UHGV virus genome: UHGV-1522278
From: a virus
Reading direction: 5' to 3' (one strand)
Length of the DNA stretch: 54,320 nt
Below the pieces are notes generated by a model. It saw only the letters and a list, made by a program, of their open reading frames with translations, did not search any database and was not told the origin of the DNA. Position numbers and translations under genes: made by a program. Shown piece by piece: positions 9,160-50,737 of the stretch (position 1 is its first letter; every line of letters begins with the position of its first letter).

Positions 9160-9267
9160 TATGGACTTACCTTGTCTGCAAGTTTACAGAATGGCGTTAA
9201 CAGGTCAAGGATTGAAAAATACATTTTGTGACTTGCATCAAACTTTTTTAGCTTATAGGGTAGCGAC

Positions 9268-9915
9268 ATGAAAACAAAATGGTATGACTTGGCAAAACAA
9301 CTCATGCGGGCGCAGGGCATGAGTCAGGATTCACTGGCTGATCTCATGGGGATAACAAAAGGCGGCTTGTCGCACTGGCTGAACGGTCGCCGTGAGCCAA
9401 ATCTTGAAGATATTGCGCGGATCATGCGGGCGCTTGGGCGTCGGCAATTCACTGTCACACATGATGGGATGGTCATCGATGATTCTGTTTCTAACACGTT
9501 ACCGGGAGCGCCACCGCGTGATTTAGGCAGTTACCCGGTTGTTGACTGGAAGGACGCAGTAAACAATATGGAAGATGCAAGGCGATCAACATTACCACAC
9601 GTTACAACTAGCGTTATTTGTTCTGATGATAGTTATTGGCTGGTAGCTAAAGGCGAATCAATGAACGCTCCGCAAGGATTGAGTATACCAGCGGGGACGA
9701 TGATACTTGTCGATCCGCACGCGCCAGCTATTGACGGCAAACTAGTTATAGCCCAACTGGAGGAAGGGCAAACTCCTACGTTTAAACAGCTTGTTATTGA
9801 TGGAGGTCAAAGGCTTTTACGTTCACTCAATCCGCTGTATCCACCGATCCCTATGAATCCAGAATCTAAAATCATAGGTGTGGTAGTGGATGCGAAGATC
9901 GTAAACCTGCCATAA
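9268..9915 (+). CDS. cI-like repressor (HTH plus S24 LexA-type peptidase domain)
   Basis: 215 aa; N-terminal HTH (SQDSLADLMGITKGGLSHWLNG); C-terminal S24 motifs GESM and a downstream Lys. Confidence 0.88.
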   Translation: MKTKWYDLAKQLMRAQGMSQDSLADLMGITKGGLSHWLNGRREPNLEDIARIMRALGRRQFTVTHDGMVIDDSVSNTLPGAPPRDLGSYPVVDWKDAVNNMEDARRSTLPHVTTSVICSDDSYWLVAKGESMNAPQGLSIPAGTMILVDPHAPAIDGKLVIAQLEEGQTPTFKQLVIDGGQRLLRSLNPLYPPIPMNPESKIIGVVVDAKIVNLP

Positions 9916-9920
9916 ACACT

Positions 9921-9946
9921 AGCCGCCGAATGGCGGCTTTTCTTTG
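9921..9946 (+). terminator. rho-independent terminator after the repressor gene
   Basis: AGCCGCC-gaat-GGCGGCT followed by TTTTCTTT. Confidence 0.6.
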
Positions 9947-10037
9947 CTAAAAAACACCAAAACGTAAACAGAAAACCATGTTTATCATTTAAATATCAAG
10001 TGCTTATAAAATTTTATAAAAAAGTATACAAAATGTG

Positions 10038-10066
10038 TTGACTCGTGTTTTTACGGGGCGTATATT
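10038..10066 (+). promoter_or_regulatory. near-consensus sigma70 promoter (TTGACT - 17 nt - TATATT) flanked by an inverted repeat
   Basis: -35 at 10038-10043, -10 at 10061-10066; TTGACTCG (10038-10045) and CGAGTCAA (10069-10076) are exact reverse complements. Confidence 0.55.
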
Positions 10067-10108
10067 TCGAGTCAAAAGGAGGAAGCAAGGCAGGGAAAGA
10101 AGGTTACT

Positions 10109-10146
10109 TGCTCTTTAATAATCTGGTCAGCCGCTGGAAGTGCGGC
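10109..10146 (+). promoter_or_regulatory. nut-like site: rrn-type boxA (TGCTCTTTAATAA) plus boxB-like hairpin
   Basis: boxA-like 10109-10121; hairpin GCCGC-tggaagt-GCGGC at 10130-10146, in the leader of the rightward early transcript. Confidence 0.45.
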
Positions 10147-10202
10147 AATTAACGAAGATGATTTTTTATTAAGTATCATCAAGGATATAAGGAGATCAGA
10201 TC

Positions 10203-10493
10203 ATGACAGTTACAATCATGTATGGCAAATGTGACAGTAAACTGAATGCCAGGGAACGCAGAAGAATAAAAAGAGAAAACGAAAGAAAATCATCACCTGC
10301 AATTAATAAAACAGACAATGTGGATAAAGCTATTCGCTTTGCAAACGAGGAAAGATGCAAACCAAATAGCATTAAAGAACGTCGCAAAGGAGCAGTAAAA
10401 TGGTATACGGAAAATGAAAGCGGCAACTACTACCACGCAACGCAACCACGCCATTTAGGGGAAAAACCACTTGATAAAGTCCGTTACCATTAA
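10203..10493 (+). CDS. Arg-rich small protein, candidate N-like antiterminator
   Basis: 96 aa, strong RBS AGGAGA; N-terminal Arg-rich motif NARERRRIKRENERK; first gene after the boxA/boxB-like site. Confidence 0.5.
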   Translation: MTVTIMYGKCDSKLNARERRRIKRENERKSSPAINKTDNVDKAIRFANEERCKPNSIKERRKGAVKWYTENESGNYYHATQPRHLGEKPLDKVRYH

Positions 10494-10523
10494 TACAAAA
10501 TGTAAACAGCCGGAGGTGACGTT

Positions 10524-10646
10524 ATGGTTATTCAGGCGCTCCAATTCAAACTGGCGGTAGCGGAAATGCTTCATGATGCCGAAATGTGGAGCGCCGCGAA
10601 TAAAGCCTTATATATAGTGTTAACAGCGAAGGAGATTAAAGAGTGA
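10524..10646 (+). CDS. small ORF (40 aa)
   Basis: GGAGGTG RBS; stop overlaps the erf GTG start (GTGA). Confidence 0.35.
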   Translation: MVIQALQFKLAVAEMLHDAEMWSAANKALYIVLTAKEIKE

Positions 10647-11284
10647 AAACAGAGTTACACAAAAAACTGTGGACGATTCAGCAAACGCTGAACGCGCCGA
10701 AAAATCAGCGTAATAATTTCGGTGGATACAATTACAGGTCGGCGGAGGATATTTTAGAAGCGGTCAAACCACTGCTTCAAAGTATTACGCTGACTGTAAG
10801 CGATGAAATTGTCCTGATCGGCAATCGCTATTATGTGAAAGCCACTGCGACACTAAGCGACGGTGAGGATGAAATAGCGGTAACGGCTTACGCCAGGGAG
10901 GAAGAAAGCAAGAAGGGAATGGACGCAAGCCAGTTAACTGGCGCGACATCAAGTTACGCGCGTAAATACGCTTTGAACGGGTTGTTCTGCATTGATGACG
11001 CAAAAGATCCTGATACTGATGCTTACGCGAAACAGACAAATCAACAGCCACGCCAGCAGAAAAACCCACCAAAACAACAACCACAGCAGCAGAAAGCGCC
11101 TCCAAATCCTGATGAGGTGTTAGCGCGTTTCTGTGATGCGGCAGCGAAAGCGCAGGACGCTAACAAATTGCGCGAGATCTTCTGGAAGTGCTGGAAGCTA
11201 CTGCCTAAAGATTCAGAGCAGCAACAGAAAGCCAAAGACGTTTATGACATTAGATTAAAAGAGCTTAACGGGGAGATCAGTTAA
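10643..11284 (+). CDS. erf: Erf-family single-strand annealing protein
   Basis: 213 aa; strong similarity to P22 Erf N-terminal domain (LNAPKNQ..FG.Y.YRS.EDILE.VKPLL...DEIVLIG.RYYVKATAT). Confidence 0.88.
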   Translation: MKTELHKKLWTIQQTLNAPKNQRNNFGGYNYRSAEDILEAVKPLLQSITLTVSDEIVLIGNRYYVKATATLSDGEDEIAVTAYAREEESKKGMDASQLTGATSSYARKYALNGLFCIDDAKDPDTDAYAKQTNQQPRQQKNPPKQQPQQQKAPPNPDEVLARFCDAAAKAQDANKLREIFWKCWKLLPKDSEQQQKAKDVYDIRLKELNGEIS

Positions 11285-11700
11285 TGAGCTTAAATTTAAT
11301 CACACTTGGCGGTAATATCGGGAATGATATGGAAATTCATTACACGCAAAACGGAAAGGCGATTGGTAGTTTTCCGTTAGCTGTAACGAATGGCTACGGC
11401 GATAATAAGCGGACAATGTGGGTCACTTGCCTGGTATTTGGCGAGCGTGCGGAAAAATTAGCGCCACATATCCGCAAGGGTGGGAAAATAGTGGTAAGCG
11501 GTCGCCTGGATGTTCGGCAATATGACCGGAACGACGGCACGAAGGGGACGGCGGTAGAAGTGGCGGTTAACGAATTTGAATTCATGAACGTTAACCAACA
11601 AGGCCAGCAGCAAGGCCAGCAGCAGAAAGCGCCACCGCATCAAAATAATAACGTGAATAATCCTCCGCCGATGGACTTCGACGATGATATTCCGTTCTGA
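11284..11700 (+). CDS. ssb: single-stranded DNA-binding protein
   Basis: 138 aa; OB-fold-like N-terminus, Gln/Gly-rich linker, acidic C-terminal tail DFDDDIPF. Confidence 0.9.
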   Translation: MSLNLITLGGNIGNDMEIHYTQNGKAIGSFPLAVTNGYGDNKRTMWVTCLVFGERAEKLAPHIRKGGKIVVSGRLDVRQYDRNDGTKGTAVEVAVNEFEFMNVNQQGQQQGQQQKAPPHQNNNVNNPPPMDFDDDIPF

Positions 11701-11715
11701 TTCAATAGGTTAGCG

Positions 11716-11994
11716 ATGGGTGATTATTTAAAACCGCCACCGCCACCGCGAACAAAAGAGCAAGTTCTAAAAGAAGCCCGTGATCATATCGATCATGGGC
11801 TTTTTTTATGCGGAACGGCAGCGGAACGGATGGCAAAAAGATTTAGTGACCTGTACGCAAAACAAATATGGTTCGACAACTGGCAGGCAAGTTTTTACCC
11901 ACTGCAAAGAAAACCGGATATGCATTGGCCTGAATATGTCGATCCACGTATGCGCAAATATCGCGGGCGTATGGGTCAGGTTATTAACGATTAA
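11716..11994 (+). CDS. hypothetical protein
   Basis: 92-aa ORF with a polyproline stretch (PPPPP). Confidence 0.45.
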   Translation: MGDYLKPPPPPRTKEQVLKEARDHIDHGLFLCGTAAERMAKRFSDLYAKQIWFDNWQASFYPLQRKPDMHWPEYVDPRMRKYRGRMGQVIND

Positions 11995-12008
11995 TGAGGT
12001 ATTAAATC

Positions 12009-12233
12009 ATGATCGAAGGTAAAGAAGTTGATAGGGAAATGCCTGACACAGCAGATGACTACGTTACTTTTGATGGTGGCATGTATGAGTTCGATACGTC
12101 GGCTGGTTGGCATGATAAATGGCCTCTGCCTACTCGCAAGGAATTGAATGACCGTAAATCATTCGGCGAAGATGCCGAACGCCTGGCGAATAACAAATGG
12201 CTTGATAAATTCATTGCGGAGGGTGGCAAATGA
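12009..12233 (+). CDS. hypothetical protein
   Basis: 74-aa ORF with GAGGT-type RBS. Confidence 0.5.
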   Translation: MIEGKEVDREMPDTADDYVTFDGGMYEFDTSAGWHDKWPLPTRKELNDRKSFGEDAERLANNKWLDKFIAEGGK

Positions 12234-12337
12234 AAAAGATTGCAATGTTAGCCGCATTTGTTGCTGTGGCGGCTGTTTACCTTAGTGCGTCACTTTATAT
12301 CACTGTGGCGATTGTTAAGCTGATTACTGACATGTGA
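12230..12337 (+). CDS. small membrane peptide (35 aa)
   Basis: ATGA start/stop overlap; one hydrophobic segment (IAMLAAFVAVAAVYLSASLYITVAIV). Confidence 0.35.
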   Translation: MKKIAMLAAFVAVAAVYLSASLYITVAIVKLITDM

Positions 12338-12344
12338 GGCTTAT

Positions 12345-13237: not shown

Positions 13238-13249
13238 AGGATAAATATC

Positions 13250-13870: not shown

Positions 13871-13877
13871 CGTTGTG

Positions 13878-13917
13878 GTTGCGATCGCATAAATATACGT
13901 TTTGTGTTGCGATCGCA
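13878..13917. promoter_or_regulatory. two copies of the palindromic motif GTTGCGATCGCA
   Basis: copies at 13878-13889 and 13906-13917, each with a central GATC, in a 99-bp intergenic gap. Confidence 0.35.
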
Positions 13918-13969
13918 AATCCGTTTTGTGAACTGAAATCAAAAGGTTTACGGCGCGGAGGAAAACAAG

Positions 13970-14671: not shown

Positions 14672-14672
14672 A

Positions 14673-17449: not shown

Positions 17450-17608
17450 AATTTACAAAATGGCGTCATTGCGTGATGTGGATCACATAATGGCGCTTTT
17501 TACCTTGTTCTGACGTATCCATTTTGTATACTTCAAACAAGCAAAATGCTCTTTAAAAATCCGGCAGCGCTGAAATGCGTAGAAATCACCTGAAAAGGAG
17601 AGAGCATT

Positions 17609-19042: not shown

Positions 19043-19221
19043 AAAACGAAATTAAAGATCTGCAAATAGATATTCAGCGCGATGAGCATGATTTAGAAAC
19101 GGTCCGACAAATCCAGGCTTTTCATATGCGCGAATTGCTTGCATTGAAAGAGCTTGAGAGAAAGTTAGTTCAGTCTATTTCTGATCGTAAACACCTTATT
19201 GCTCGTTACGGGGGCAAGTAA
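19039..19221 (+). CDS. hypothetical protein (predicted coiled coil)
   Basis: 60-aa ORF. Confidence 0.45.
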   Translation: MKNEIKDLQIDIQRDEHDLETVRQIQAFHMRELLALKELERKLVQSISDRKHLIARYGGK

Positions 19222-19943
19222 TGAATCTGGAATCTATTCTCAAATTCCACTTCCCAAAATCACCGCGTTTATCAGATGAAAGCCGGGGCACGTCCCCGGA
19301 TGCACTTAATACTACGGATGCACTAACAGCAGCAGGCATGGCGCAATCGCGCGTAGAGCTTGGTTATAGCGCTTTTTTAGGGAAGATGGAACTATCACAA
19401 GCCGAAAAACATAAGGCCGTAGTTTTGCTTACAGAGCGTTTAAGGACTATGGCAAAAGATTATGAATACGTTATGGAACTGGACGAGGCCAAACGCAATG
19501 ATCTTATTATTCTTGTTGCCGTTTTCGCGTTTCGGGATTATTGCCAAAGCGCCGCGACGGAAAAAACTTGCCCGGAGTGCGGCGGATATAAATTTACGTT
19601 TGACGACTACGGAGAAAAACACCTTTGCAAAAAATGCAAGGGGCATGGGACAGTTCGCAATCATTGTAAACAATGCAAGGGCCGTGGCGAAGTACCGGAT
19701 AAAGCAGCCAGTGAAGCGGCGGAAATGCCAGTGTTCAAAACGTGCCAGCATTGCGGCGGGCGCGGGTACTCGCGTTTCCCTGTAGATCTTGTACGGCAGG
19801 CGGTTAATCAGCTTGTTTTTCCGGTAAGCCGATCAACATGGTGGAAAAAGTACCGGGCTTTCTATGAAGACGCCATTGCTGAATTGTTCAAAGAAGAGGC
19901 GCTGGCAGATAACGAAATTAAAAGAGTGACGCGGGGTGAATGA
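19221..19943 (+). CDS. DnaJ-type zinc-finger protein (4 x CxxCxGxG); possible Q-like late regulator
   Basis: 240 aa; CPECGGYK, CKKCKGHG, CKQCKGRG, CQHCGGRG repeats; sits where Q would be after ninG/rusA. Confidence 0.55.
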   Translation: MNLESILKFHFPKSPRLSDESRGTSPDALNTTDALTAAGMAQSRVELGYSAFLGKMELSQAEKHKAVVLLTERLRTMAKDYEYVMELDEAKRNDLIILVAVFAFRDYCQSAATEKTCPECGGYKFTFDDYGEKHLCKKCKGHGTVRNHCKQCKGRGEVPDKAASEAAEMPVFKTCQHCGGRGYSRFPVDLVRQAVNQLVFPVSRSTWWKKYRAFYEDAIAELFKEEALADNEIKRVTRGE

Positions 19944-22476: not shown

Positions 22477-22531
22477 TGGTATTGCTTTCACGCAATAAAT
22501 ATAAAACGTGATCTACCTCGCAAAATATACG

Positions 22532-22563
22532 AAATGGCATTGTTTCGGCAGTGCCATTTTGTT
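22532..22563 (+). terminator. candidate rho-independent terminator
   Basis: AAATGGCA...TGCCATTT stem with a long loop, followed by TTTTGTT. Confidence 0.35.
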
Positions 22564-22586
22564 ATATATAAGCCACCGAAAGACGG

Positions 22587-24157: not shown

Positions 24158-24186
24158 TTGTGGGTCGAAAACAAACAGATTAAAAT
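24158..24186 (+). promoter_or_regulatory. candidate late promoter (TTGTGG - 17 nt - TAAAAT) upstream of the lysis cassette
   Basis: -35-like at 24158-24163, -10-like at 24181-24186; followed within about 30 nt by a strong terminator hairpin. Confidence 0.35.
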
Positions 24187-24213
24187 ATTACCTAACAATG
24201 CGAAAGTGTAACT

Positions 24214-24240
24214 ACCCGGCCCCGTGCCGGGTTTTTGCTT
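24214..24240 (+). terminator. rho-independent terminator just upstream of the holin gene (tR'-like)
   Basis: ACCCGGC-cccgt-GCCGGGT followed by TTTTTGCTTT. Confidence 0.55.
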
Positions 24241-37334: not shown

Positions 37335-37751
37335 TTATCTGAACCTTACTATTTCAATTCTGCCGTTGCCCAAGTCAATGATGGCATGATTTTTTATACC
37401 CGCGCCGCCTTCGTTAAATATTCTTTCAGCAAATGCGGCTTTATCAGCGTTACACTCATTGGCTATTCTGTTTCTTATTTCATCGTTGCCTTCGAATACG
37501 ACGCCTACAGCAGCCTCCTTCACAAGCCCCCAGTTAAACCATCTTGCGTAAACTGGTTTACCTTCGAAATGCTTATCAATTGCTTCATAAAAAACCTTAA
37601 TGGCGGCCGGTTCCTTCTTGAAAATTTTATGGTATTCGGCAACGTTGTTTGCTACTTCATTGCAGTTTATGTTTATTGCTTCGTTTGCATTGGCGTTGAA
37701 TGCCATACCAACCATTACCGCCATCACCGCCGCTTTGATTAACCGTTTCAT
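37335..37751 (-). CDS. secreted protein of unknown function (minus-strand insert in the tail module)
   Basis: 138 aa; signal peptide MKRLIKAAVMAVMVGMAFNANA; two Cys; opposite strand to all flanking tail genes. Confidence 0.65.
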   Translation of the reverse strand: MKRLIKAAVMAVMVGMAFNANANEAININCNEVANNVAEYHKIFKKEPAAIKVFYEAIDKHFEGKPVYARWFNWGLVKEAAVGVVFEGNDEIRNRIANECNADKAAFAERIFNEGGAGIKNHAIIDLGNGRIEIVRFR

Positions 37752-37763
37752 AACCCACCCCGC

Positions 37764-37850
37764 TTAGTTTTTATTTTTAAGTGCTTTCAGCATTTCTTCT
37801 ATAAAGTCGGCATAGTGCTCATGCTCGTTGGGTCGGTAGTAGTTTTTCAT
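37764..37850 (-). CDS. small ORF (28 aa) upstream of the secreted-protein gene
   Basis: GAGGA RBS; 12-nt gap to the next gene. Confidence 0.35.
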   Translation of the reverse strand: MKNYYRPNEHEHYADFIEEMLKALKNKN

Positions 37851-38007
37851 TTTCTTATCCTCTTTTGCTTCCTCCGGTTAATCCGGCCTTTTAAGTCCCT
37901 TCGCTCTATCCCTTTTCTTTATCTTCTTTATACAAAATGTACTCGTTGAAGTGAAGCCATTTTGTATAAAATAGAGACGTGGATCACATTTCGTATGAGG
38001 TTAAATC

Positions 38008-40675: not shown

Positions 40676-40930
40676 TCATTTATGTGCCCCTTTTACGCCA
40701 CAGTGGCGGTTGTATTCCAGATGGTCAATAATTAACCACATCTTTAGATCTTCGCTGAATAACCGCCAATCGGGGTTGATGTCAAATTTATAACCGTAGC
40801 CATCGCGTAATTTTTTGGGGTTGGCCTCTTTTTTCAGGAAAGCATTTAATAAAGCCTTGCCTTTTTTGATGATCCGTTCCTGGGCGTTTTTCTGTGCTTT
40901 CAGGTTTTTGCCAATCATTACCAATTTCAT
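40676..40930 (-). CDS. hypothetical protein (84 aa, Lys-rich N-terminus) in cassette B
   Basis: GGGGTGAG RBS; no motif recognised. Confidence 0.55.
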   Translation of the reverse strand: MKLVMIGKNLKAQKNAQERIIKKGKALLNAFLKKEANPKKLRDGYGYKFDINPDWRLFSEDLKMWLIIDHLEYNRHCGVKGAHK

Positions 40931-40950
40931 AACTCACCCCACGCAATCAA

Positions 40951-41106
40951 TCAGTTGACCACTTTCAGGAAGAAATCACGGTATTCATCTTCTTTTGCAT
41001 TCATCATAAATTGACCGTATTTGAATGCATCATCAAAACCCTTCACAATCGCAACTTCCACCTGTTCGAATGCTTTGTTTAGCATTACCACTACATAGCG
41101 TTCCAT
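40951..41106 (-). CDS. small protein (51 aa), first gene of cassette B
   Basis: AAGGAGG RBS; MERYVVVMLNKAFEQVEVAIVKGFDDAFKYGQFMMNAKEDEYRDFFLKVVN. Confidence 0.4.
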   Translation of the reverse strand: MERYVVVMLNKAFEQVEVAIVKGFDDAFKYGQFMMNAKEDEYRDFFLKVVN

Positions 41107-41275
41107 ATTGGCCTCCTTTGTTGGTGCTGCTTTCTCTTCTTGATTTCTATATACATCTTGTCACGTCATGTGTGAAGCCGTTTTGTAAACTGGGTATAAT
41201 TCTTGTGACAAAGTTCTCATTTTTCGCGTAGAAGCGCGTAAAGATGTATGCAATATGTAACTTATAGGGGGAATC

Positions 41276-41826: not shown

Positions 41827-41830
41827 TAAC

Positions 41831-41856
41831 AACCCCGCTTCTCGCGGGGTTTTCTT
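41831..41856. terminator. bidirectional rho-independent terminator (near-identical copy at 50286-50313)
   Basis: AACCCCGC-ttctc-GCGGGGTT followed by TTTCTT. Confidence 0.6.
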
Positions 41857-42005: not shown

Positions 42006-42254
42006 CTATAAGTTATCACGCAGATAATTAACGCCCTTATCAGTGACGAATGAATGGTTAACCTGGTTTTCATCCGTCATGATGATGAATAACTTTTCCT
42101 GTAGGTATTTCGCTTTTGGGTACAGTGTTAAACAGACTTGATACAGTATCCCGCGCTCAATCAGCAAATCAATAAATTCGTGTTCATGATAACCGATGAG
42201 GCGGGCGGCCTGTTTCAACGTGTACACATAATCGCCGTGATTGCGCCGCCCCAT
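42006..42254 (-). CDS. hypothetical protein with HTH-like segment (82 aa) in cassette C
   Basis: YTLKQAARLIGYHEHEFIDLLIERGIL resembles an HTH. Confidence 0.55.
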   Translation of the reverse strand: MGRRNHGDYVYTLKQAARLIGYHEHEFIDLLIERGILYQVCLTLYPKAKYLQEKLFIIMTDENQVNHSFVTDKGVNYLRDNL

Positions 42255-42263
42255 GTTGCCGCC

Positions 42264-42614
42264 TTATTTATCGAATGCGCCCAGGTTATCTATGCAGAAA
42301 TCTTTTGCCGCTTTTTCGTATTCGCGTTTTGCTTGCGGATCGTCTGCCGGGAAACCTTTTGCGTGTATTTCACCAGGGCAAGACTGATCCATAGAGTCAG
42401 CAAGGTTAACATTGACATTGAAATTGACATCTTTCGGGTTCATCTCTTCCACCTTATCCGGTACTTGTACTGGAACAACATAATAATAACGAGCATTAGA
42501 CCAACAGCGCAGTAATTCACGACCTTCATCACACGCTGATTCATATGTATCAAATAGCCCCATGCGTTCCCATTCGTATTTATCAGTCCACACGTCTAAT
42601 CTGTATTTTTCCAT
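42264..42614 (-). CDS. hypothetical protein (116 aa) in cassette C
   Basis: no motif recognised; tightly packed with neighbours (9- and 15-nt gaps). Confidence 0.55.
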   Translation of the reverse strand: MEKYRLDVWTDKYEWERMGLFDTYESACDEGRELLRCWSNARYYYVVPVQVPDKVEEMNPKDVNFNVNVNLADSMDQSCPGEIHAKGFPADDPQAKREYEKAAKDFCIDNLGAFDK

Positions 42615-42629
42615 TTTTTGTTATAACCC

Positions 42630-42785
42630 TCATTTGACAGGTTCGATCCTGTACCCCAAAACGCGTTCGTCTTCAGCGAGTAAGAGCGCGTCGGTAAGTG
42701 CCTCGCCTTCATCTTTATACAGGGCCACAGTCATTTTCCTGCCATCCGCAAGGAACACCGTCAACCTCCACACCTTGTCATCCAT
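42630..42785 (-). CDS. small protein (51 aa), first gene of cassette C
   Basis: start at the ATG at 42785 with GGAGGTG RBS; MDDKVWRLTVFLADGRKMTVALYKDEGEALTDALLLAEDERVLGYRIEPVK. Confidence 0.45.
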   Translation of the reverse strand: MDDKVWRLTVFLADGRKMTVALYKDEGEALTDALLLAEDERVLGYRIEPVK

Positions 42786-42913
42786 TTCACACCTCCGCGC
42801 CATTTTGTTAACCATGCTTCCTTTTGAGTACAATATACATATTGTAAAAAACGCGATCAACCGTTTTGGCATGATTTAGCGTGATTTAGATCACAAAATG
42901 ACAAGGTGATAAA

Positions 42914-44838: not shown

Positions 44839-47800
44839 ATGAGTAGCGGCGGCGGCAAAGCCAAAACACCAACATTATTAAACGATAACCTGTTTCATAA
44901 ACAGTTTTATCGTGTTTTGGACATTCTCAGCGAAGGCCCAATCTACGGCCCTGTAAACCAGAAAGCGCCATTAAACAGCGTAATGCTTAATGACAGCCCA
45001 ATCACTGACGCCAACGGCGGCACATCGGTCCCTGGCGTTAGCGTGGCGTGGCGTAATGGTACGGCTGACCAGTCACCAATCAACGGCTTCAACGCCATTG
45101 AATCAACCGTTATTGTTAACGCAAAAGTGACTCACGATACGCCAATAATCAGGACTGTTTCAGATCCAAACGTTAACCGCGTAAGGCTGAATCTTGGCGT
45201 TGATTCTCTGGTTCAGTCAGATGATAAGGGCAATCAATACAATACATCTGTTGTGTTGATGGTTGATGTTAAGCCATCATCGTCAACAACGTGGTCACTG
45301 GTCAAAGATATTACCATTGGCCCTGGTAAACAAAGCGGCGAGTATATGGAAGCGCACATCATCCAAGCGCCGGATGAAAAACCGTTTGATATTCGCGTTC
45401 GTCGCGTAACGCCAGACAGTAAAAGCGATCTACTTCGCAATGACACCAGGTGGAGCAGTTACAGCGAGATAATAGACGATAACTTGTCTTATCCCCATAC
45501 CGCTGTAGCAGGCGCGGTAATTGACCACGATCAGTATACCGACACGCCGACACGCACCTATCACATGCGCGGCCTGATTGTTGACGTGCCTGATAACTAC
45601 GACCCGGAAACACGCACATACTCAGGTTTATGGCTTGGTGGCTTCAAAAAGGCATACACCAACAACCCTGCATGGCTTTTCCGGTATCTGGTGAAAAATG
45701 AACGCTTCGGGCTTACCCGCCACGCCGGTTACATTGACGTTGATGATGGCGCATTATATGTGCTTTCTCAATACTGCGACCAGTTGGTAAACGACGGTTA
45801 CGGCGGCCTTGAACCACGCATGACGCTTAACGCTTACATCACTGAGCAAATTAGCGCCCGCGACTTGCTGGACAACATTGCAGGCATGTTCCGTGGTATC
45901 GCGTTATGGGACGGGCAGCGCCTTACGGTGATGATTGATGCACCGCAAGATCCAATTGCCACCATCACGAATGCAAACGTCGTTGATGGCGCATTTACTC
46001 GTTCAAGTATCGCCCGCGCGGAATCTTACAACGCTGTGATTGTGTCATGGACTGACCCGGAAAACGGTTGGGAACAATCAAAAGAATACGTAGCAGATGA
46101 TGAACTGATCGCCCGCGATGGTTACAACGAAACCACTTTGGAGGCTTTTGGTTGCACGTCACGCGGGCAGGCGTACCGCGCTGGCAAATGGCTGATAGAA
46201 ACAGCAAAACGCGAACCCTCAAAATTCACGTTTAAAATGGCCCGTGACGCGATTCACTTCACCCCAGGGGATATTATCGAGATACTCGACAATAACCGCG
46301 CTGGCGCTCGTTTAGGTGGTCGCATCGTGGCGAATAACGGGAAAGTGATAACCGTAGACAAGGTTGATTCTGACCTGGTGGCGGCTGGTGACACTATCAG
46401 CTTACTGGACAGCGACGGTAAGTTTAAAAAACATCAGATCACTGGGGTTAACGGAAACAATATTACCCTTGCGGCAGCGCCCGCATGGATTCGTAACGGA
46501 ACCGTATTTGCCGTTTCAACTGAATCCGCAAAACCTGTTCTGTGCCGAATTACCAGCGTAGCGGAAACCGAAAATAACAGCGTGTACACCATTGAGGCTG
46601 CACAGCACGATCCTCACAAACAGGCTGTAGTTGATGAAGGCGCAATCTTCGAGGTAAACAACGACACGCTTAATCACTTCCGCGTGCCGAACATTGAAAA
46701 TCTGAAGGTGTTAAATGTTGGTTCTGAAACTGTTCAATGTCGCGCAACATGGGAAACACAGACGACAACGCATCGCCTGACCTTTGAAATCCGCGTATAT
46801 AACACCGAAGGCCGCATTGTGGCAACTTATGAAACCACGAATTACCGCTATGATTTTTATGGCCTCGACGCTGGCAGCTACACGCTTGGTATTCGCGGGC
46901 GTAATGACACTGGCATGAAGGGTGCGGAAAGTATTGTAGACCTGGTTATTGGTGCGCCAGCGGCCCCGATTGGAGTCAATTGGGTTCCAGGTGTCTTCCA
47001 GGCAACGGTATATCCGATCAGCAAAACAACCCTTACCACTGATACGGCATATGATTTCTACTACTCAGGTGAAAATCAGATCACAGATCCATCAAAAGTA
47101 ACCACGCTGGCGCAATTCACCGGGCGCGGCTACCAATGGACTTTTGGCGGTATGAATACGGGACACACTTATTACGTCTATGTGCGCACGCGTAATGCCT
47201 TTGGTGTGTCAGACTTCGTTGAGGCATCAGGTAAACCGACTGAAAACTTCGACGAAATCAGCGACTACGTGATGAAGGATGTCATGGAGTCAGAACAATT
47301 CAAGGACATGATTGGCGACATTAAAGATCTTGGCGACCGTGCCGACCTTATCGAAAGCGCTACAAATGACCTTAAAAACGCTACTGACAACCTCAAAACT
47401 GCAACTGACACCCTGACAAACGTCACTGACGAATTGAGGACTGATACTGACAACCTGACAAACATCACTGAGGATTTAAGGACTGACACTGACAGCTTAA
47501 TCACAGAAACAGGAGTCATAAAAGCTGACACGGACACACTGAAAAAAGAAACGGAAGATCTCTACAAAAAAGTTAAAGAGAACGCCGATGATATTGGTCA
47601 GCATGAGTCCAGAATCGACTTATTAGAAGTGTCAAGCGAAAAAGTTGACAGCGAACTGGCGCAGGCAAAAGCAAGCCTGCAAAACGCTTCATTGGCGCTT
47701 ATCAACAACTCGCTTGCACAGACAAACACGCGCGTAACCCTTACCGCCCAGTATAAGAAAGGCATGACGGAAACGAAAGCGGAAATTGACCGTATTGACA

Positions 47801-50280
47801 ACGTTATCGCTGAAGAGAAAAAAGCGACAGCGGAATCACTGGAAACCATCACGGCAGAAATGAACACGATGGATTCCAACCTTAAAGGTCAGATTTCCAG
47901 CGTGGAACGTGCAGTGGCTGACGAGGCCAGCGCACGCGCCGAAGCTATTAACGGTGTGAACGCCTCAATAGACAATCTCGACAAGAAAACTGACGCCAGC
48001 GTTAAACGTCTGGACCAGGCAATCGCCGATGAATCGAGCGCGCGCACCCAGGCTGTCAGCGACGTTAACGCAAGCATTTCAGCACTTGACAAGAAAACTG
48101 ACGCCAGCGTTAAACGCCTTGATCAAGCTATTGCAGACGAAACAAGCGCACGCGCCGAAGCTATCAATGGGGTAAATGCCTCAGTATCAGCACTTGATAA
48201 GAAAACCGATTCAAGCATAAGCCGCCTTGATAAAGCTATTGCCGACGAAACGAGCGCGAGAACCGAAGCCATCAATGGTGTGAAGGCATCAATCTCCACA
48301 CTTGACGGCAAGGTAACAAGTAACGTTAATCGCCTTGATAAAGCTATTACAGACGAAACTAAGGCACGCACTGACGCTATCAGCAGCGTTAATGCAAGCA
48401 TCAGCACGCTTGAAAGCAACACTGAATCAGAGGTGAACAGACTCGACCAGGCCATCGCTGACGAGGCCAGCGCACGCGCACAGGCCATCAGTGGCGTGAA
48501 GGCATCGATAGACACCCTTGATAAGAAAACAGACGCCAGCGTTTCCCGTCTTGATAAAGCGATAGCAGACGAAACTCAGGCAAGAAGCGCCGCAATAACA
48601 GATGTTAAGGCTGATTTGACAACGCTCGAAAACAGCACAAACGCCAGCGTCAAACGCCTTGACCAGGCGATTGCTGACGAATCAAGTGCCCGCGCTGAAG
48701 CAATATCAGGCATTAACGCAGAGATCGGCAGCATCGAAAACAACGTTGACAAAAACAGCGATGATATAAATCAGACCAAAGCAAGCCTGCAAAACGCTTC
48801 ATTGGCGCTTATCAACAACTCGCTTGCACAGACAAACACGCGCGTAACCCTTACCGCCCAGTATAAGAAAGGTCGCAAGGAAACAAACGCGCAGATTGAT
48901 CGTATTGACAGTGTTATCGCTGAAGAGAAAAAGGCTACAGCCGAAGCAATTGGCGTGGTAAAAGCATCGATCACCGATCTTGACAAGAAAACAGACGCCA
49001 GCGTTTCCCGCCTTGACAGAGCGATTGCAGACGAAACAAGCGCACGCAGCGAGGCTATCAGCGGCGTGAACGCATCAATTTCCACCATTGATAGTAATGT
49101 GAAAAGCAATATTACCAGGATGGATAAGGCTATCGCCGACGAAACAAAAGCACGCGCAGACGCAATAAGCGGCCTTAATGCATCGCTTACCAGTACGATC
49201 ACCTCGAAAGTATCTGAGGTATCAACGGCACTGGCTACGCATGAGGAATCAAGCGCTGAAAAATTCAGCCAGATCTCAGCGTCATTCGAACTAGTAGACG
49301 CAAGTATCACTGAATGGTCGCAGGCGATGGCTACGGCTGACGAGGCGTTATCAACGAAAATCGATCAGCTAACAGTGACCGTTAACGGGAATAAGACGGC
49401 AATAGAAACGACATCTAAAGCATTGACCGACTTCAAGGGCAATGTTGATGCGTCGTACTCTATCAAGCTGGCGACCGACAACAACGGAATGAAATACGCA
49501 ACAGGTATGTCGCTTGGCCTCACTGGTGACGGCACTAACTTTCAGTCGCAGTGTATTTTCCTTGTTGACCGTTTCGTGTTAATGACCGCAGCAAACGGCA
49601 CATATACAACGCCTTTCTATGTCACCAATGGCGCAATGTATGTAAGAGAAGCGTTTATTAAGGACGGAACTATCAACTCCGCCAAAATAGCTGATCGAAT
49701 ACAGTCAGTTAATTACAGCTGGGAAAACGGTACAGGATGGGCGATAGATAAAGCCGGTGACGCAGTATTTAACCAGGTAACCGTAAGGGGTACGGTATAC
49801 GCTTATGCTGGTGTGTTTAACGGTACTGTTTACGCAACTGGCGGTAAATTTACTGGAGCAGTTGAAGCTACAAGTTTTGTTGGTGACGTGGCAAGTATGT
49901 CAGTGATAAACGAGGATGTATTTCCGTCAATGAGGGGAAATGGCAGCAGGCGCGTTTCGAAAACTTATCTTGATTCAAGTTCATCAAGTTTATCAAAAAC
50001 AGTTTACGTTATGATTCCGTATGATTTGTCATACCATACATATAGTGAATCTTCTCGCATCAATGTAACTATAAATATAAGCGGACACACAAAAACAATT
50101 AATATAGAAAGGCCAGCATCAGGCCAAGCAATGTCATCTGTCGCGGTGCACTGTGTATCTGGCCTCACATACCCAACAATTACAGTCGAGGTGACGGAAA
50201 ACTTTACCAATACATCTAATGCAGCAATAAGAAAACCAGGTTTAATACTTATAACAAGAAGTTCAGGAACATGGATATAA
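44839..50280 (+). CDS. J: host-specificity / central tail fibre protein J-like, extended by a long coiled-coil repeat domain
   Basis: 1813 aa; N-terminal two-thirds J-like; aa about 1020-1450 are about 11 tandem 37-aa repeats (LDKKTDASVKRLDQAIADE.SAR.EAI.GVNASI); distinct C-terminal domain. Confidence 0.85.
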   Translation: MSSGGGKAKTPTLLNDNLFHKQFYRVLDILSEGPIYGPVNQKAPLNSVMLNDSPITDANGGTSVPGVSVAWRNGTADQSPINGFNAIESTVIVNAKVTHDTPIIRTVSDPNVNRVRLNLGVDSLVQSDDKGNQYNTSVVLMVDVKPSSSTTWSLVKDITIGPGKQSGEYMEAHIIQAPDEKPFDIRVRRVTPDSKSDLLRNDTRWSSYSEIIDDNLSYPHTAVAGAVIDHDQYTDTPTRTYHMRGLIVDVPDNYDPETRTYSGLWLGGFKKAYTNNPAWLFRYLVKNERFGLTRHAGYIDVDDGALYVLSQYCDQLVNDGYGGLEPRMTLNAYITEQISARDLLDNIAGMFRGIALWDGQRLTVMIDAPQDPIATITNANVVDGAFTRSSIARAESYNAVIVSWTDPENGWEQSKEYVADDELIARDGYNETTLEAFGCTSRGQAYRAGKWLIETAKREPSKFTFKMARDAIHFTPGDIIEILDNNRAGARLGGRIVANNGKVITVDKVDSDLVAAGDTISLLDSDGKFKKHQITGVNGNNITLAAAPAWIRNGTVFAVSTESAKPVLCRITSVAETENNSVYTIEAAQHDPHKQAVVDEGAIFEVNNDTLNHFRVPNIENLKVLNVGSETVQCRATWETQTTTHRLTFEIRVYNTEGRIVATYETTNYRYDFYGLDAGSYTLGIRGRNDTGMKGAESIVDLVIGAPAAPIGVNWVPGVFQATVYPISKTTLTTDTAYDFYYSGENQITDPSKVTTLAQFTGRGYQWTFGGMNTGHTYYVYVRTRNAFGVSDFVEASGKPTENFDEISDYVMKDVMESEQFKDMIGDIKDLGDRADLIESATNDLKNATDNLKTATDTLTNVTDELRTDTDNLTNITEDLRTDTDSLITETGVIKADTDTLKKETEDLYKKVKENADDIGQHESRIDLLEVSSEKVDSELAQAKASLQNASLALINNSLAQTNTRVTLTAQYKKGMTETKAEIDRIDNVIAEEKKATAESLETITAEMNTMDSNLKGQISSVERAVADEASARAEAINGVNASIDNLDKKTDASVKRLDQAIADESSARTQAVSDVNASISALDKKTDASVKRLDQAIADETSARAEAINGVNASVSALDKKTDSSISRLDKAIADETSARTEAINGVKASISTLDGKVTSNVNRLDKAITDETKARTDAISSVNASISTLESNTESEVNRLDQAIADEASARAQAISGVKASIDTLDKKTDASVSRLDKAIADETQARSAAITDVKADLTTLENSTNASVKRLDQAIADESSARAEAISGINAEIGSIENNVDKNSDDINQTKASLQNASLALINNSLAQTNTRVTLTAQYKKGRKETNAQIDRIDSVIAEEKKATAEAIGVVKASITDLDKKTDASVSRLDRAIADETSARSEAISGVNASISTIDSNVKSNITRMDKAIADETKARADAISGLNASLTSTITSKVSEVSTALATHEESSAEKFSQISASFELVDASITEWSQAMATADEALSTKIDQLTVTVNGNKTAIETTSKALTDFKGNVDASYSIKLATDNNGMKYATGMSLGLTGDGTNFQSQCIFLVDRFVLMTAANGTYTTPFYVTNGAMYVREAFIKDGTINSAKIADRIQSVNYSWENGTGWAIDKAGDAVFNQVTVRGTVYAYAGVFNGTVYATGGKFTGAVEATSFVGDVASMSVINEDVFPSMRGNGSRRVSKTYLDSSSSSLSKTVYVMIPYDLSYHTYSESSRINVTINISGHTKTINIERPASGQAMSSVAVHCVSGLTYPTITVEVTENFTNTSNAAIRKPGLILITRSSGTWI
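47668..47762 (+). repeat. exact 95-bp direct repeat, copy 1 (inside J)
   Basis: identical to 48778-48872; similarity continues with mismatches for about 100 bp more. Confidence 0.8.
47896..49200 (+). repeat. degenerate tandem coding repeats (about 111-bp unit, about 11 copies) inside J
   Basis: periodic repetition of GACAAGAAAACTGACGCCAGCGTTAAACG...ATTGC(A/C)GACGAA-type units; in-frame coding, not CRISPR. Confidence 0.6.
48778..48872 (+). repeat. exact 95-bp direct repeat, copy 2 (inside J)
   Basis: identical to 47668-47762. Confidence 0.8.
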
Positions 50281-50285
50281 AAAAC

Positions 50286-50313
50286 AACCCCGCTTCGCGC
50301 GGGGTTTTCTTTT
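50286..50313. terminator. bidirectional rho-independent terminator between J and the lipoprotein gene
   Basis: AACCCCGC-ttcgc-GCGGGGTT followed by TTTCTTTT. Confidence 0.6.
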
Positions 50314-50560
50314 AGTAGTTAGCTACACAGTTAGAAGGGCTACCGATGCGGCGCATGTTGTGATCGAGTTCGTGACACCATTGACCAGTATATGGCAGTT
50401 TTTCAGTGTCATAGACTAGATGCCCGCCACCATCATAAACAACATCTTGCGGAATTACTCCACTATTCGGCAGGTTATGCAATGCAGCCTCTTTGTCAAC
50501 AGAGCAACCAGTAAGAGCAACAGCCGCAGCGAACAAAACCACTTTGAACACGTTTTTCAT
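50312..50560 (-). CDS. lipoprotein, candidate Cor-like superinfection-exclusion protein
   Basis: 82 aa; signal peptide plus lipobox (MKNVFKVVLFAAAVALTGC); convergent with and immediately downstream of J. Confidence 0.7.
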   Translation of the reverse strand: MKNVFKVVLFAAAVALTGCSVDKEAALHNLPNSGVIPQDVVYDGGGHLVYDTEKLPYTGQWCHELDHNMRRIGSPSNCVANY

Positions 50561-50737
50561 TTTTGAACCCTCATTCTTGTTTGTTAATCCGGTTCACCCG
50601 GTGACTTAAATATCCGGCAAAACCACATTTCGTATATTGACACAGATCAACAAATACATTTTGTGTAAGCAGAAAATGCAACACAGATCACAAAATGGTA
50701 GAATTATTCCGTTAATTAACAAAATGGAGTCATCGAG

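Follow-up and report, generated by a model that had tools for sequence, protein, structure and literature searches.

A conserved seven-base box in fixed register with promoter-like hexamers, mostly beside CRP-like sites, in an mEpimmI prophage of Escherichia coli

Among temperate phages, short dispersed control sites are described as the C1 operators of P1 and the stoperators of mycobacteriophage L5, which are asymmetric, repressor-bound sequences of 13-17 bp, the stoperators being oriented with transcription. Lambdoid moron cassettes reportedly consist of a gene with its own promoter and terminator, inserted between late genes. The consensus site for CRP, the sugar-sensing regulator of the host, is AAATGTGATCTAGATCACATTT, whose flank reads TCACATTT and not TCACAAAA. 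In natural CRP-dependent promoters the CRP site is often followed directly downstream by UP-like sequence (Zhou et al. 2014, PMC4132738), and UP and extended -10 elements, with the consensus AAAAAARNR for the UP proximal subsite and -17 TRTGn -13 for the extended -10, relax the spacing of class I promoters (PMC4132738). In the temperate phage T1, control of the lysis-lysogeny switch by CRP via Pir was shown experimentally (Laganenka et al. 2019, PMC6737242). The mEpimmI family constitutes one immunity group, and its members are reported to occur as frequently as lambdoid phages in the temperate coliphage population of human gut samples (PMC11893012); that paper and the deposited records inspected annotate nut sites, ribosome-binding sites and terminators only, leaving promoters and operators unannotated.

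The stretch analysed here (the window; all 54,320 nucleotides of UHGV-1522278) is an E. coli prophage of the mEpimmI (mEp021) group, and its control regions share a 7-bp box, CAAAATG or CATTTTG, which is quasi-palindromic, with the outer CA and TG common to both orientations. The window holds 18 exact copies of ACAAAATG or CATTTTGT, against 4.65 expected from dinucleotide shuffles and 3.2-4.5 from Markov models of orders 1-5; CATTTTGTA is its most over-represented 9-mer, and TACAAAATG occurs nine times for 1.04 expected, or 0.70 under a fourth-order Markov model, by which it is the top 9-mer of the window. Fourteen of the 18 copies lie mostly outside called genes, in DNA that makes up 6.7% of the sequence (binomial P = 8e-14 with the gene map of this report), and 13 are wholly non-coding, where a first-order Markov model of the AT-rich non-coding segments expects 0.34 (maximum three in 500 simulations).

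These counts (18 copies against about 4.5 window-wide) bear out an earlier note on this DNA, which had judged the motif far more frequent than chance, and the enrichment persists against local AT content because the 13 non-coding copies stand against 0.34 under the local-composition model. The sites that the note had listed are exact copies or complements of ACAAAATG (9222, 10028, 17455/17520, 37932/37958, 42801/42893 and 50657/50690), and eight more had escaped it (1435, 5393, 9274, 10495, 22555, 23192, 34269 and 50719). About five of these added copies, at 1435, 5393, 9274, 23192 and 34269, are coding or part of a start codon and probably incidental. What it had described as a perfect 11-bp inverted repeat before the tape-measure gene extends to 13 bp, with TTTATACAAAATG at 37927-37939, CATTTTGTATAAA at 37958-37970 and a spacer of 18 bp. 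Furthermore, GATCACAAAATG is present twice, at 42889 and 50686.

The motif stands as a real, conserved element of the intergenic control regions. The comparison set comprised about 45 related IMG/VR contigs together with seven isolated phages; in it the non-coding copies are syntenically kept, and the aligned sequences are conserved in blocks that match the positions of boxes, hexamers and CRP arms. Within the box, the T and G adjoining the -10 are the least variable positions, and the middle varies (CGTTTTG, CATTATG, CATATTG). The AAAAAAGTATACAAAATG immediately before TTGACT at PR is invariant in 43 of 43 relatives, as is the right arm of the tape-measure unit in 44 of 44 loci; the box CATTCTG of PL reads CATTTTG in about half of the relatives, and the CGTTTTG of the gpM unit (41179-41185) is CATTTTG in 60 related loci. 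Motif copies are absent from every other phage group searched: BLAST of two control regions returned no phages beyond the seven related ones, screening of representative genomes with the major tail protein gave no further spread, and the exact tape-measure palindrome occurred in IMG/VR in mEpimmI contigs only. Copies inside the variant cassettes of relatives look coding and follow no pattern.

The box keeps a fixed register in eight promoter-like units (Table 1), where it adjoins a hexamer starting with TA, or lies 2-3 bp upstream of a TTNNNN -35-like hexamer found 16-17 bp before that -10, or does both. The copy directly upstream of the -10 (box 2) occupies about -19 to -13; the copy upstream of the -35 (box 1) occupies about -44 to -38 and always reads CAAAATG(G). 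In four units a distance of 17-18 bp separates the two boxes, in keeping with ordinary sigma-70 geometry, and an inter-box gap of 18 bp is the sum of 2, 6 and 10, thus matching the requirement for a 17-bp spacer. The pattern CAWWWTG followed by TAWWNW was observed 12 times for 1.16 expected, and the composite C[AG]AAA[CT]G-N17/18-CA[AT]N[AT]TG-T, a pattern written after seeing the data, five times for 0.04 expected. PL and PR were recovered independently by a promoter scan, in which PR scored 10/12, and nut sites lie downstream of both (cf. PMC11893012).

Table 1. Promoter-like units and elements carrying the box, with the CRP-like sites assigned to them (centre, approximate position relative to the start)
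Feature	Position	Strand	Box, hexamers and other elements	CRP-like site
PR	10029..10066	+	box CAAAATG 10029-10035 (~-44 to -38); -35 TTGACT 10038-10043; -10 TATATT 10061-10066	
PL	9181..9245	-	-35 TTGACC 9208-9203; 16-bp spacer ending in box CATTCTG 9193-9187; -10 TAAACT 9186-9181; nutL boxA downstream, 9086-9102 (cf. PMC11893012)	9224-9245 (9234.5; ~-60.5), containing upstream copy ACAAAATG 9229-9222
Copy between N-like gene and next gene	10471..10502	+	TTGATA-N17-TACAAA; TACAAAATG 10494-10502	
nutR2 promoter unit	17455..17532	+	copy 17455-17462; terminator t4 17458-17501; -35 TTGTTC 17505-17510; box CATTTTG 17520-17526; -10 TATACT 17527-17532; nutR2 boxA after the unit, 17548-17556	17469-17490 (17479.5; ~-59.5), the top of t4
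Optional module	22504..22568	+	box CGAAATG 22530-22536; -35 TTGTTT 22540-22545; box CATTTTG 22555-22561; -10 TATATA 22563-22568	22504-22525
Tape-measure unit, whole span with leftward elements	37927..37991	both directions	-10 TATAAA 37932-37927; box CAAAATG 37933-37939; N18 containing leftward -35 TTCACT	37970-37991, half-good (37980.5; ~-60.5 for leftward promoter)
Tape-measure unit, rightward part	37958..37970	+	box CATTTTG 37958-37964; -10-like TATAAA 37965-37970	
gpM unit, whole span with leftward elements	41148..41222	both directions	-10 TATATA 41153-41148; box CATCTTG 41154-41160; N18 containing leftward -35 TTCACA	41201-41222 (41211.5; ~-70.5 for leftward promoter)
gpM unit, rightward part	41179..41200	+	box CGTTTTG 41179-41185; TAAACT 41186-41191; TATAAT 41195-41200	
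gpL unit, whole span with leftward elements	42801..42900	both directions	copy 42801-42808; -10 TATATT 42837-42832; box CATATTG 42838-42844; -35 TTGATC 42860-42855	42877-42898; right flank = copy 42893-42900
gpL unit, rightward part	42862..42875	+	box CGTTTTG 42862-42868 (CATTTTG in relatives); G; CATGAT 42870-42875 (TATGAT in relatives)	
lpp/fibre unit, whole span with leftward elements	50637..50726	both directions	FNR-like TTGACACAGATCAA 50637-50650; -10 TATTTG 50656-50651; box CATTTTG 50657-50663; third copy 50719-50726, adjoining the ribosome-binding site	50674-50695 (50684.5; ~-40.5 for lpp)
lpp/fibre unit, rightward part	50691..50704	+	box CAAAATG 50691-50697; G; TAGAAT 50699-50704 (canonical TGn extended -10)	

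Of the -10 hexamers, TAAACT, TATACT, TATATT, TAGAAT and TATGAT have A at position 2 and T at position 6; the final T is missing from TATAAA, TATATA and TATTTG. In three units only, 22555-22568, 42862-42875 (in relatives) and 50691-50704, does the TG stand in the canonical extended -10 register (TG at -15/-14); in the others the G of the box directly abuts the -10 hexamer, at -13, and is not one base away from it. A sequence-level comparison of TACAAAATG with the UP proximal consensus AAAAAARNR gave agreement at seven of nine positions (consensus from PMC4132738), and this UP-like sequence lies at -46 to -38 (+/-1) at PR, the tape-measure, toxin-antitoxin and antirepressor cassettes and the promoter-like sequence at 22563. 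No -35 can be recognised in the rightward units before the tape-measure and gpL genes, some copies (10035 leftward, 17462 leftward and 6532) would direct promoters antisense into genes, and the invariant C of the box is unaccounted for by UP-element or TG rules. The element at 10471..10502, kept in 41 relatives, may be a further promoter, as judged from its hexamers.

Besides the boxes, seven of the eight units have a strong CRP-type site, PR alone being without one. With a matrix built from 17 classical CRP sites (training sites scoring 4.4-17.0), the six best matches of the whole window, at 15.0-17.5 bits, all fall in box-bearing control regions, and the seventh site counted, 41201-41222, scores 12.2 bits here with a median of 15.4 in relatives. 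Positions of at least 13.6 bits number seven, against 0.47 in shuffles, and one of them (1584-1605) is outside the control regions. The signal is visible only by matrix score together with location: GATCACA alone is not enriched in the window (11 observed, 6.8 expected), and neither is TGTGA-N6-TCACA with at most two mismatches over the whole genome (25 against 23.5). The CRP-like sites are kept family-wide, with invariant arms and variable spacers. The CRP centre lies 47.5-50.5 bp from the -10 in five units, and at 58.5 and 28.5 bp in one unit each, distances that are constant in relatives (identical in 36 of 37 at the nutR2 unit). With the hexamer taken as -12 to -7 and the CRP-hexamer pairings chosen by the analyst, the predicted positions of the centres are -59.5, -60.5 (three units), -62.5, -70.5 and -40.5, for comparison with the -41.5, -61.5 and -71.5 of class I and class II promoters; two centres at about -59.5 are 2 bp off the classical -61.5. 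The optional module carries its own CRP-like site and boxes; it is present in only four of 32 relatives, which have a perfect TGTGA-N6-TCACA core and, in one case, an exact ACAAAATG.

The reading that we favour, to which we would give about an even chance, is that the box is part of a family-specific sigma-70 promoter module, mostly paired with CRP sites. Box 2 would put a T/A tract and a TG immediately beside the -10, and box 1 would fall where the alpha subunit, through its C-terminal domain, contacts the proximal UP subsite. Carriers of one or both boxes would be PR, PL, the promoter just before nutR2, the optional promoter at 22563 and four leftward-cassette promoters. From enrichment, conservation, register and CRP-like sites we infer that the units are working promoters whose boxes are read by RNA polymerase and not by another protein. 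The fixed register to the -10 and -35 hexamers fits promoter-core elements, while the symmetric CA...TG core could equally suit a dimeric protein.

The gene setting is also in line with the promoter module. Among the tail genes lie four leftward cassettes, encoding a 138-aa protein, a ParE-type toxin-antitoxin pair, an antirepressor cassette and the Lpp exclusion lipoprotein; such leftward cassettes need their own promoters, which supports the boxes as promoter parts, and boxes are found 20-85 nt upstream of each first start codon. A more distant Enterobacter relative is without reverse cassettes and without the motif. Where a leftward cassette meets a rightward tail gene, a leftward promoter and a rightward, -35-poor promoter-like sequence would stand back to back (a 44-bp arrangement before the tape-measure gene), so that one box could be -10-adjacent for one direction and -35-adjacent for the other, and such back-to-back units would account for the inverted motif pairs. 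Since a strong CRP-type site accompanies seven of the eight units, activation of these seven by cAMP-CRP is predicted.

The nearest described counterparts are the class I and class II CRP-dependent sigma-70 promoters of E. coli (PMC4132738). With the pairings chosen above, the phage units appear to share with them a 22-bp TGTGA-N6-TCACA site centred at about -40, -60 or -70, a weak -35 hexamer with A-rich sequence lying between it and the CRP site, and a TG-containing stretch just upstream of the -10. In the phage, however, a single 7-bp box, found in either orientation and recurring across the genome, makes up both the A-rich and the TG stretch; the TG in most cases touches the -10, units are joined back to back within 44-45 bp, and CRP dependence is predicted. 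As in lambdoid morons, accessory genes predicted to be independently transcribed (toxin-antitoxin, exclusion lipoprotein, antirepressor) lie among the tail genes, each cassette bounded by a terminator and a promoter region; unlike morons, the cassettes here are reversed, share the box architecture and CRP-type sites, and have outward promoter-like sequence toward the downstream tail gene.

The alternative proposed by the earlier note, that the motif is a shared regulator binding site, holds as far as a real, conserved control-region element goes, but a single shared regulator site is unsupported, because pair spacings differ and copies vary. The box would then be the operator or half-operator of a dedicated DNA-binding protein switching many promoters together, which we regard as rather unlikely. 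Candidates would be the cI-like repressor, the 110-aa HTH protein whose gene opens the PL operon (8707-9039, a Cro-like position), a small cassette protein or a host factor; the nearest solved relative of the repressor is lambda CI, which is uninformative about the operator, and searches with the first PL-operon protein gave no informative match. The CA-N3-TG core is two-fold symmetric and several copies extend to TACAAAATGTA. One and the same 16-nt string, TCCATTTTGTATACTT, stands upstream of PR (in most relatives) and at the nutR2 promoter, some relatives have TCCATTTTGTAAACTT at PL, and no variation is seen in the copies that precede PR and the tape-measure gene. Its overlap with the -10-proximal spacer puts the box where repressors usually sit, the variation of 0-1 bp in its distance from the -10 is less critical for an operator than for a polymerase contact, and the element is confined to the mEpimmI family. 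Against these points, there are neither dyad partners at operator spacing nor clusters of adjacent sites, the within-pair spacings of 26, 33, 65 and 92 bp show that the pairs are not a common bipartite site, and the 25 bp between box centres make about 2.4 helical turns, a distance ill suited to cooperative binding along one side of the helix. Furthermore, copies vary within one immunity group, the promoter classes are mixed (early promoters against exclusion and toxin-antitoxin cassettes expected to be on in a lysogen), the Q-dependent late promoter lacks the box, and the box positions match known polymerase contact points.

In the form of OL/OR-type operators bracketing the repressor gene, the proposal is not supported. 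Copies flank the cI-like gene near PL and PR as lambda operators do, but 17-bp pseudo-palindromes, dyad partners and adjacent triplets are lacking at PL and PR, each of which has a single copy, and the PR copy is upstream of the -35, at -44 to -38 and off the core promoter. About half of the relatives in this single immunity group, whose repressors are 93-100% identical, have CGTTTTGT in place of copy 9222, which lies left of the repressor gene, in departure from the conservation of lambda-type operators within an immunity group; the constant feature at this copy is TGTGA-N6-TCAAA, a CRP-type site. A palindrome and shared 15-mer search of PL and PR for common repressor operators gave only CTTGCA-N4-TGCAAG repeats at PL and the motif segment. 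The dedicated-protein reading would rather resemble the dispersed C1 operators of P1 or the L5 stoperators, with which the motif shares its more than ten intergenic occurrences in a temperate phage genome; it differs from them in its core of 7-9 bp, its mixed orientation, its register tied to the -10 and -35, and in being known from sequence alone.

It is improbable that the copies are common-descent remnants of paralogous modules, spread by duplication or cassette exchange, or homology linkers, with no sequence-specific function. Shared segments do link control regions, namely GTGAAGCC(A/G)TTTTGTA the tape-measure and gpM regions, AAATACATTTTGTG positions 9218 and 50652, CAGATCACAAAATG the gpL and fibre regions and CACATTTCGTAT positions 37987 and 50625, and different cassettes occur to the left of the same conserved control block. 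Nevertheless, the copies are kept in about 45 genomes while the flanking intergenic DNA diverges, which argues for selection on the sequence itself, a fixed hexamer register is unexpected of passive remnants, and 8-16 bp is too short for efficient homologous exchange.

Quite improbable, too, is the motif as a mere by-product of CRP sites, in which case it would do nothing by itself and be either their A/T-rich flank (TCACAAAATG or CATTTTGTGA) or an additional, degenerate half-site. The exact copies at 9222, 42893 and 50690, three in all, are indeed the A/T flank of a CRP-type site and overlap the cores of top-scoring ones, a copy lies within about 50 bp of every CRP-like site, and relatives differ freely in the AAAATG part of copy 42893 (AGAATG, AAATC, AAATT, ATTTT) beside an invariant GATCACA. 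The other ten non-coding copies, however, overlap no TGTGA or TCACA arm and stand in fixed register beside a -10 or -35, the PR copy is invariant at a promoter-like unit that has no CRP-like site, and the consensus flank TCACATTT differs from TCACAAAA.

It is hardly credible that the inverted pairs work at the RNA level, as hairpins of read-through transcripts that would signal processing or stability or terminate weakly. The tape-measure pair can form an AU-rich stem of 13 bp (-14.7 kcal/mol on one strand and -17.2 on the other, z about -4) and copy 17455 is at the foot of terminator t4, but that stem is a trivial consequence of the inverted repeat, the remaining pairs, separated by 33-92 nt, give no stable fold (z -1.3 and -0.65), orientation and spacing vary, Rfam gave no match, and single copies are conserved at PR and 10495. 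A Q-binding or late-promoter element was rejected, the PR'-like promoter and terminator before the lysis genes (24159-24236) having no copy, as were start codons of small ORFs or leaderless starts, whose reading frames are unconserved among relatives. By eye, neither the consensuses of IHF, Fis, Lrp, ArcA, CpxR, PhoP, TyrR, MlrA and LexA nor those of sigma-32, sigma-E and sigma-S promoters fit across the copies, and an FNR-like site occurs in the lpp/fibre unit only.

Our results raise the tentative and rather doubtful prospect of a whole temperate-phage family wired to host carbon status through about seven CRP sites and a compact 44-bp bidirectional unit with a dual-use 7-bp box or, in a stronger variant, of a box that is the operator of an unrecognised phage regulator co-ordinating more than ten promoters. 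The wiring would run through CRP sites at PL, at the nutR2 promoter leading to Q, and at the antirepressor, exclusion and toxin-antitoxin cassettes. T1 with Pir offers a similar input of host cAMP-CRP into the control of a temperate coliphage, but there a single regulator gene is CRP-controlled, whereas the present phage has seven predicted CRP sites, distributed among early promoters and accessory cassettes. If the promoter module is true, it would provide the first promoter map for the mEpimmI group, explain how backward cassettes among the tail genes can be expressed without silencing the downstream genes, and predict that early transcription, expression of the antirepressor and superinfection exclusion are tied to host nutrition by cAMP-CRP. 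If the box binds a phage protein instead, it would reveal a new genome-wide regulon in a temperate coliphage.

Eighteen exact copies of the 8-mer ACAAAATG or its complement could be found in the window, one of them at every site listed in the earlier note, against 4.65 expected from dinucleotide shuffles and 3.2–4.5 from Markov models of orders 1–5. Likewise, TACAAAATG occurred nine times (1.04 expected from dinucleotide shuffles of the window), and CATTTTGTA, the top 9-mer of the window, nine times (0.70 expected at Markov order 4). On our own gene map, DNA outside genes makes up 6.7% of the sequence and contains all or most of the length of 14 of the 18 copies (P = 8e-14); 13 are wholly non-coding, against 0.34 expected and a maximum of 3 in 500 simulations under a model of the non-coding segments themselves. 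Local AT-richness therefore does not account for the enrichment. About five copies, coding or in start-codon context, are probably incidental.

Identity of 88–91% over long stretches to Escherichia phages mEp010, mEp554, mEp021, mEp044, mEp013, mEp515, and MagusPhagus indicates that the window is a prophage of the mEpimmI (mEp021) group of Nus-dependent, non-lambdoid temperate coliphages (PMC11893012), and the flanking 22-bp repeats are probably its attL and attR cores. The mEp021 gene order is kept (integrase, leftward early operon, repressor, N-like, Q-type, then lysis, head, and tail genes), nutL, nutR1, and nutR2 are placed as described for the group, and the rightward tail genes are interrupted by four leftward cassettes. 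In the toxin (TA) cassette, the small ORF probably encodes the antitoxin of the ParE-like toxin, and a listed + strand ORF over it (41025-41231) is probably spurious. Several imperfect direct repeats in the J-like tail tip gene (47668-49060, up to 164 bp at 91% identity) agree with the repeat region described for the J-like protein of this group. No ribosome-binding site is obvious at the repressor start (9254-9270), which follows a TATAGG hexamer at a distance of about 9 nt, so that the repressor mRNA may, by analogy with lambda cI from PRM, be leaderless or nearly so.

Features of the window. Promoter-like units are detailed as box 1; -35; spacer; box 2; -10; distance from CRP centre to the first base of the box-adjoining -10 (hexamer/CRP pairings were chosen by us)
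Feature	Position	Details
Direct repeat flanking the element	231-252 and 54122-54143	22 bp, one mismatch
nutL	near 9086-9102	boxA sequence
cI-like repressor gene	9268-9915	rightward, between PL and PR
nutR1	near 10108	boxA sequence
N-like gene	10203-10493	
nutR2	17548-17556	boxA sequence
Q-type antiterminator	19221-19943	PF03589
Tape-measure cassette	37335-37850	leftward; unknown 138-aa protein, 28-aa ORF
TA cassette	40676-41105 (-)	between tape-measure and gpM genes; ParE-like toxin (PF24732), small upstream ORF 40951-41105
Antirepressor cassette	42006-42785	leftward; ANT-domain antirepressor, two small proteins
lpp cassette	50312-50560	leftward; lipoprotein
CRP-type site	9224-9245	17.1 bits
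CRP-type site	17469-17490	17.4 bits
CRP-type site	22504-22525	16.4 bits
CRP-type site	37970-37991	15.0 bits
CRP-type site	41201-41222	12.2 bits; median 15.4 in relatives
CRP-type site	42877-42898	17.5 bits
CRP-type site	50674-50695	15.2 bits
One-base-variant copies	9186, 13898, 17541, 41178, 41250	9186 in PL -10 region; 41178 and 41250 ahead of gpM
PL unit (leftward)		none; TTGACC; 16 bp; CATTCTG (CATTTTG in half of relatives); TAAACT; 48.5 bp
nutR2 promoter unit		none; TTGTTC; 16 bp; CATTTTG; TATACT; 47.5 bp
22563 promoter unit		CGAAATG; TTGTTT; 17 bp; CATTTTG, then T; TATATA; 48.5 bp
Tape-measure cassette unit (leftward)		CAAAATG; TTCACT; 17 bp; CATTTTG; TATAAA; 48.5 bp
TA cassette unit (leftward)		CAAAACG; TTCACA; 17 bp; CAAGATG; TATATA; 58.5 bp
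Antirepressor cassette unit (leftward)		CAAAACG; TTGATC; 17 bp; CAATATG; TATATT; 50.5 bp (51.5 in most relatives)
lpp unit (leftward)		none; no clear -35; CAAAATG; TATTTG; 28.5 bp
PR unit		CAAAATG; TTGACT; 17 bp; none; TATATT

The outer bases C, A ... T, G are common to both orientations, giving a 7-bp core, the box, that reads CAAAATG or CATTTTG. Alignment of the promoter-like units on their -10 hexamers gave two fixed positions for the box: box 2 directly adjoins the -10 hexamer, and box 1, which always reads CAAAATG(G) with the variants tabulated, ends 2–3 bp upstream of the -35 hexamer. The box-to-box gap of 18 bp (2 + 6 + 10) matches the 17-bp spacer requirement. The composite box 1-N17/18-box 2-T, a pattern devised after viewing the data, occurred five times against 0.04 expected, and a box followed by a TA-rich hexamer 12 times against 1.16, while a consensus promoter scan independently found PL, PR, and the antirepressor promoter. 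At box 1, between -46 and -38, seven of the nine positions of TACAAAATG agree with the proximal UP consensus AAAAAARNR. In the strong T5 promoter PN25, which reads TTTTTCTGTATAATAGA, TG directly adjoins the hexamer; that sequence is close to CATTTTGTATAAAATAGA of the window units.

Since GATCACA adjoins some motif copies, CRP sites were sought with a symmetric matrix of 17 classical E. coli sites. The six best hits of the window all lay within motif-bearing control regions, and seven positions reached at least 13.6 bits against 0.47 in shuffles, one of them (1584-1605) outside control regions. Seven CRP-type sites (TGTGA-N6-TCACA) are kept family-wide, with invariant arms and variable spacers. 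The tabulated distances place their centres near -60, -70, and -40, as for class I and class II sites, and are constant in relatives; according to published work, CRP-dependent promoters commonly have UP-like and extended -10 elements, which loosen the spacing rule for class I (PMC4132738). The site at 17469-17490 doubles as the top of terminator t4, leaving two possible causes for its conservation. A further CRP-type palindrome at 13874-13889, between two early genes and followed by a motif copy, is degenerate in the window (TGTGGTTGCGATCGCA); many relatives carry a perfect core TGTGATTGCGATCACA, then ATACATTTTGT.

The surroundings of the tape-measure, repressor, and gpL genes were compared in about 45 related IMG/VR contigs. 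At PR, AAAAAAGTATACAAAATG immediately before the -35 TTGACT was unchanged in 43/43 relatives; ahead of the tape-measure gene, CCATTTTGTATAAAATAGA was unchanged in 44/44 loci and the left arm was retained in 39, despite at least four different cassettes on the left side. Copies upstream of gpL, the fibre gene, and nutR2 were likewise conserved, and the boxes lie within conserved blocks adjoining other conserved blocks. Synteny mapping added positions with an exact copy in relatives and a one-base variant in the window, including two ahead of gpM (60 related loci each), so that all four cassette junctions carry a pair. The architecture was retained in two more divergent relatives, with some copies degenerate, and an Enterobacter relative without reverse cassettes had zero copies. 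Among 2.9 million IMG/VR contigs, the exact tape-measure palindrome was confined to members of this family, and two control regions matched solely the seven related phages in a phage collection.

On the + strand, the tape-measure junction reads TTTATA-CAAAATG-N18-CATTTTG-TATAAA, which is two outward-facing -10 hexamers, each adjoined by a box, within 44 bp. The same plan recurs ahead of gpM (TATATA-CATCTTG-N18-CGTTTTG-TAAACT) and gpL (AATATA-CATATTG-N17-18-C(A/G)TTTTG-G-(T/C)ATGAT), and at the fibre junction a CRP-type site lies between boxes 27 bp apart. The gene layout demands a leftward promoter at each cassette, and the leftward unit has the better -35 at each junction; rightward units depend on the -10 region alone, with a canonical TGn extended -10 at gpL and the fibre gene.

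Ahead of the antirepressor cassette, a near-invariant 18-bp palindrome, TACAATATACATATTGTA (42829-42846), overlaps the two facing -10 regions and resembles an operator at which a regulator encoded in the cassette might act, by analogy with a P22 immI-type region. Two GC-rich 29-bp hairpins, 96.6% identical (41828-41856 and 50283-50311; AACCCCGC...GCGGGGTT), resemble a bidirectional terminator that has been used twice, at the borders of two cassettes. The gpM leader holds a strongly conserved small hairpin, CGCGTAGAAGCGCG (41224-41240). Between the lipoprotein and fibre genes lies an FNR-like site, TTGACACAGATCAA (50637-50650), a perfect TTGAT-N4-ATCAA in most relatives, and just 5' of the fibre gene's ribosome-binding site a perfect palindrome, GTTAATTAAC (50711-50720), is unchanged in all relatives, even those without the lipoprotein cassette.

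Judging from sequence, we give about an even chance that RNA polymerase itself recognises the box, as part of a promoter module specific to this phage family. Adjoining the -10, it would supply a T/A tract and TG; adjoining the -35, it would resemble a proximal UP subsite; and upstream-bound CRP would bring in the alpha C-terminal domain. Against this, most units have TG out of its canonical register, several hexamers do not end in T, a -35 is missing from some rightward units, a few copies would direct antisense transcription, and the invariant C of the box is not accounted for. The earlier note had proposed a shared regulator site, with one pair of copies bracketing the repressor gene in the manner of OL/OR-type operators. 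Its observation of the dispersed motif was confirmed, and its interpretation is supported in part. The symmetric core, a stretch of 16 nt (TCCATTTTGTATACTT) shared by the nutR2 region and the DNA upstream of PR, and restriction to one phage family could fit a dedicated DNA-binding protein; that reading is nevertheless rather unlikely, as operator-like dyads or clusters were sought and not found, copies vary inside one immunity group, the box-bearing promoters are of mixed classes, and the 25-bp box spacing is awkward. Three exact copies (9222, 42893, 50690) are a mere flank of a CRP core, and at 42893 the AAAATG portion varies in relatives while GATCACA is constant, but an origin purely as CRP flank accounts for these three only. 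Passive paralogy explains neither conservation nor register, and RNA hairpins fail to generalise across the inverted pairs.

At 17458-17556, terminator t4 (-20.9 kcal/mol, then TTTTT) is directly followed by the promoter-like TTGTTC-16-TATACT and then nutR2 boxA, an order by which nutR2 may belong to a transcription unit of its own instead of acting on read-through from PR. Just ahead of the lysis genes (24159-24236), a PR'-like late promoter, TTGTGG-17-TAAAAT, precedes a GC-rich terminator in a layout similar to lambda PR'-tR'; it carries no motif, and a Q-related role of the motif is excluded.

The paper examined on the mEpimmI group covers nut sites, repressor, attachment sites, and exclusion proteins, and describes neither promoters nor operators nor this motif (PMC11893012); ribosome-binding sites and terminators are the only signals annotated in the GenBank records examined. 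As ingredients, sigma-70 elements, CRP sites, and moron cassettes are all known already. The repeated box with its dual use, the back-to-back unit of 44 bp, and the number of CRP-type sites packed into a single prophage appear to be new. Phage T1 offers a precedent for CRP input to a coliphage switch (PMC6737242), and the predicted sites suggest that cAMP-CRP could control the early promoters and accessory cassettes of this prophage, the antirepressor cassette included.
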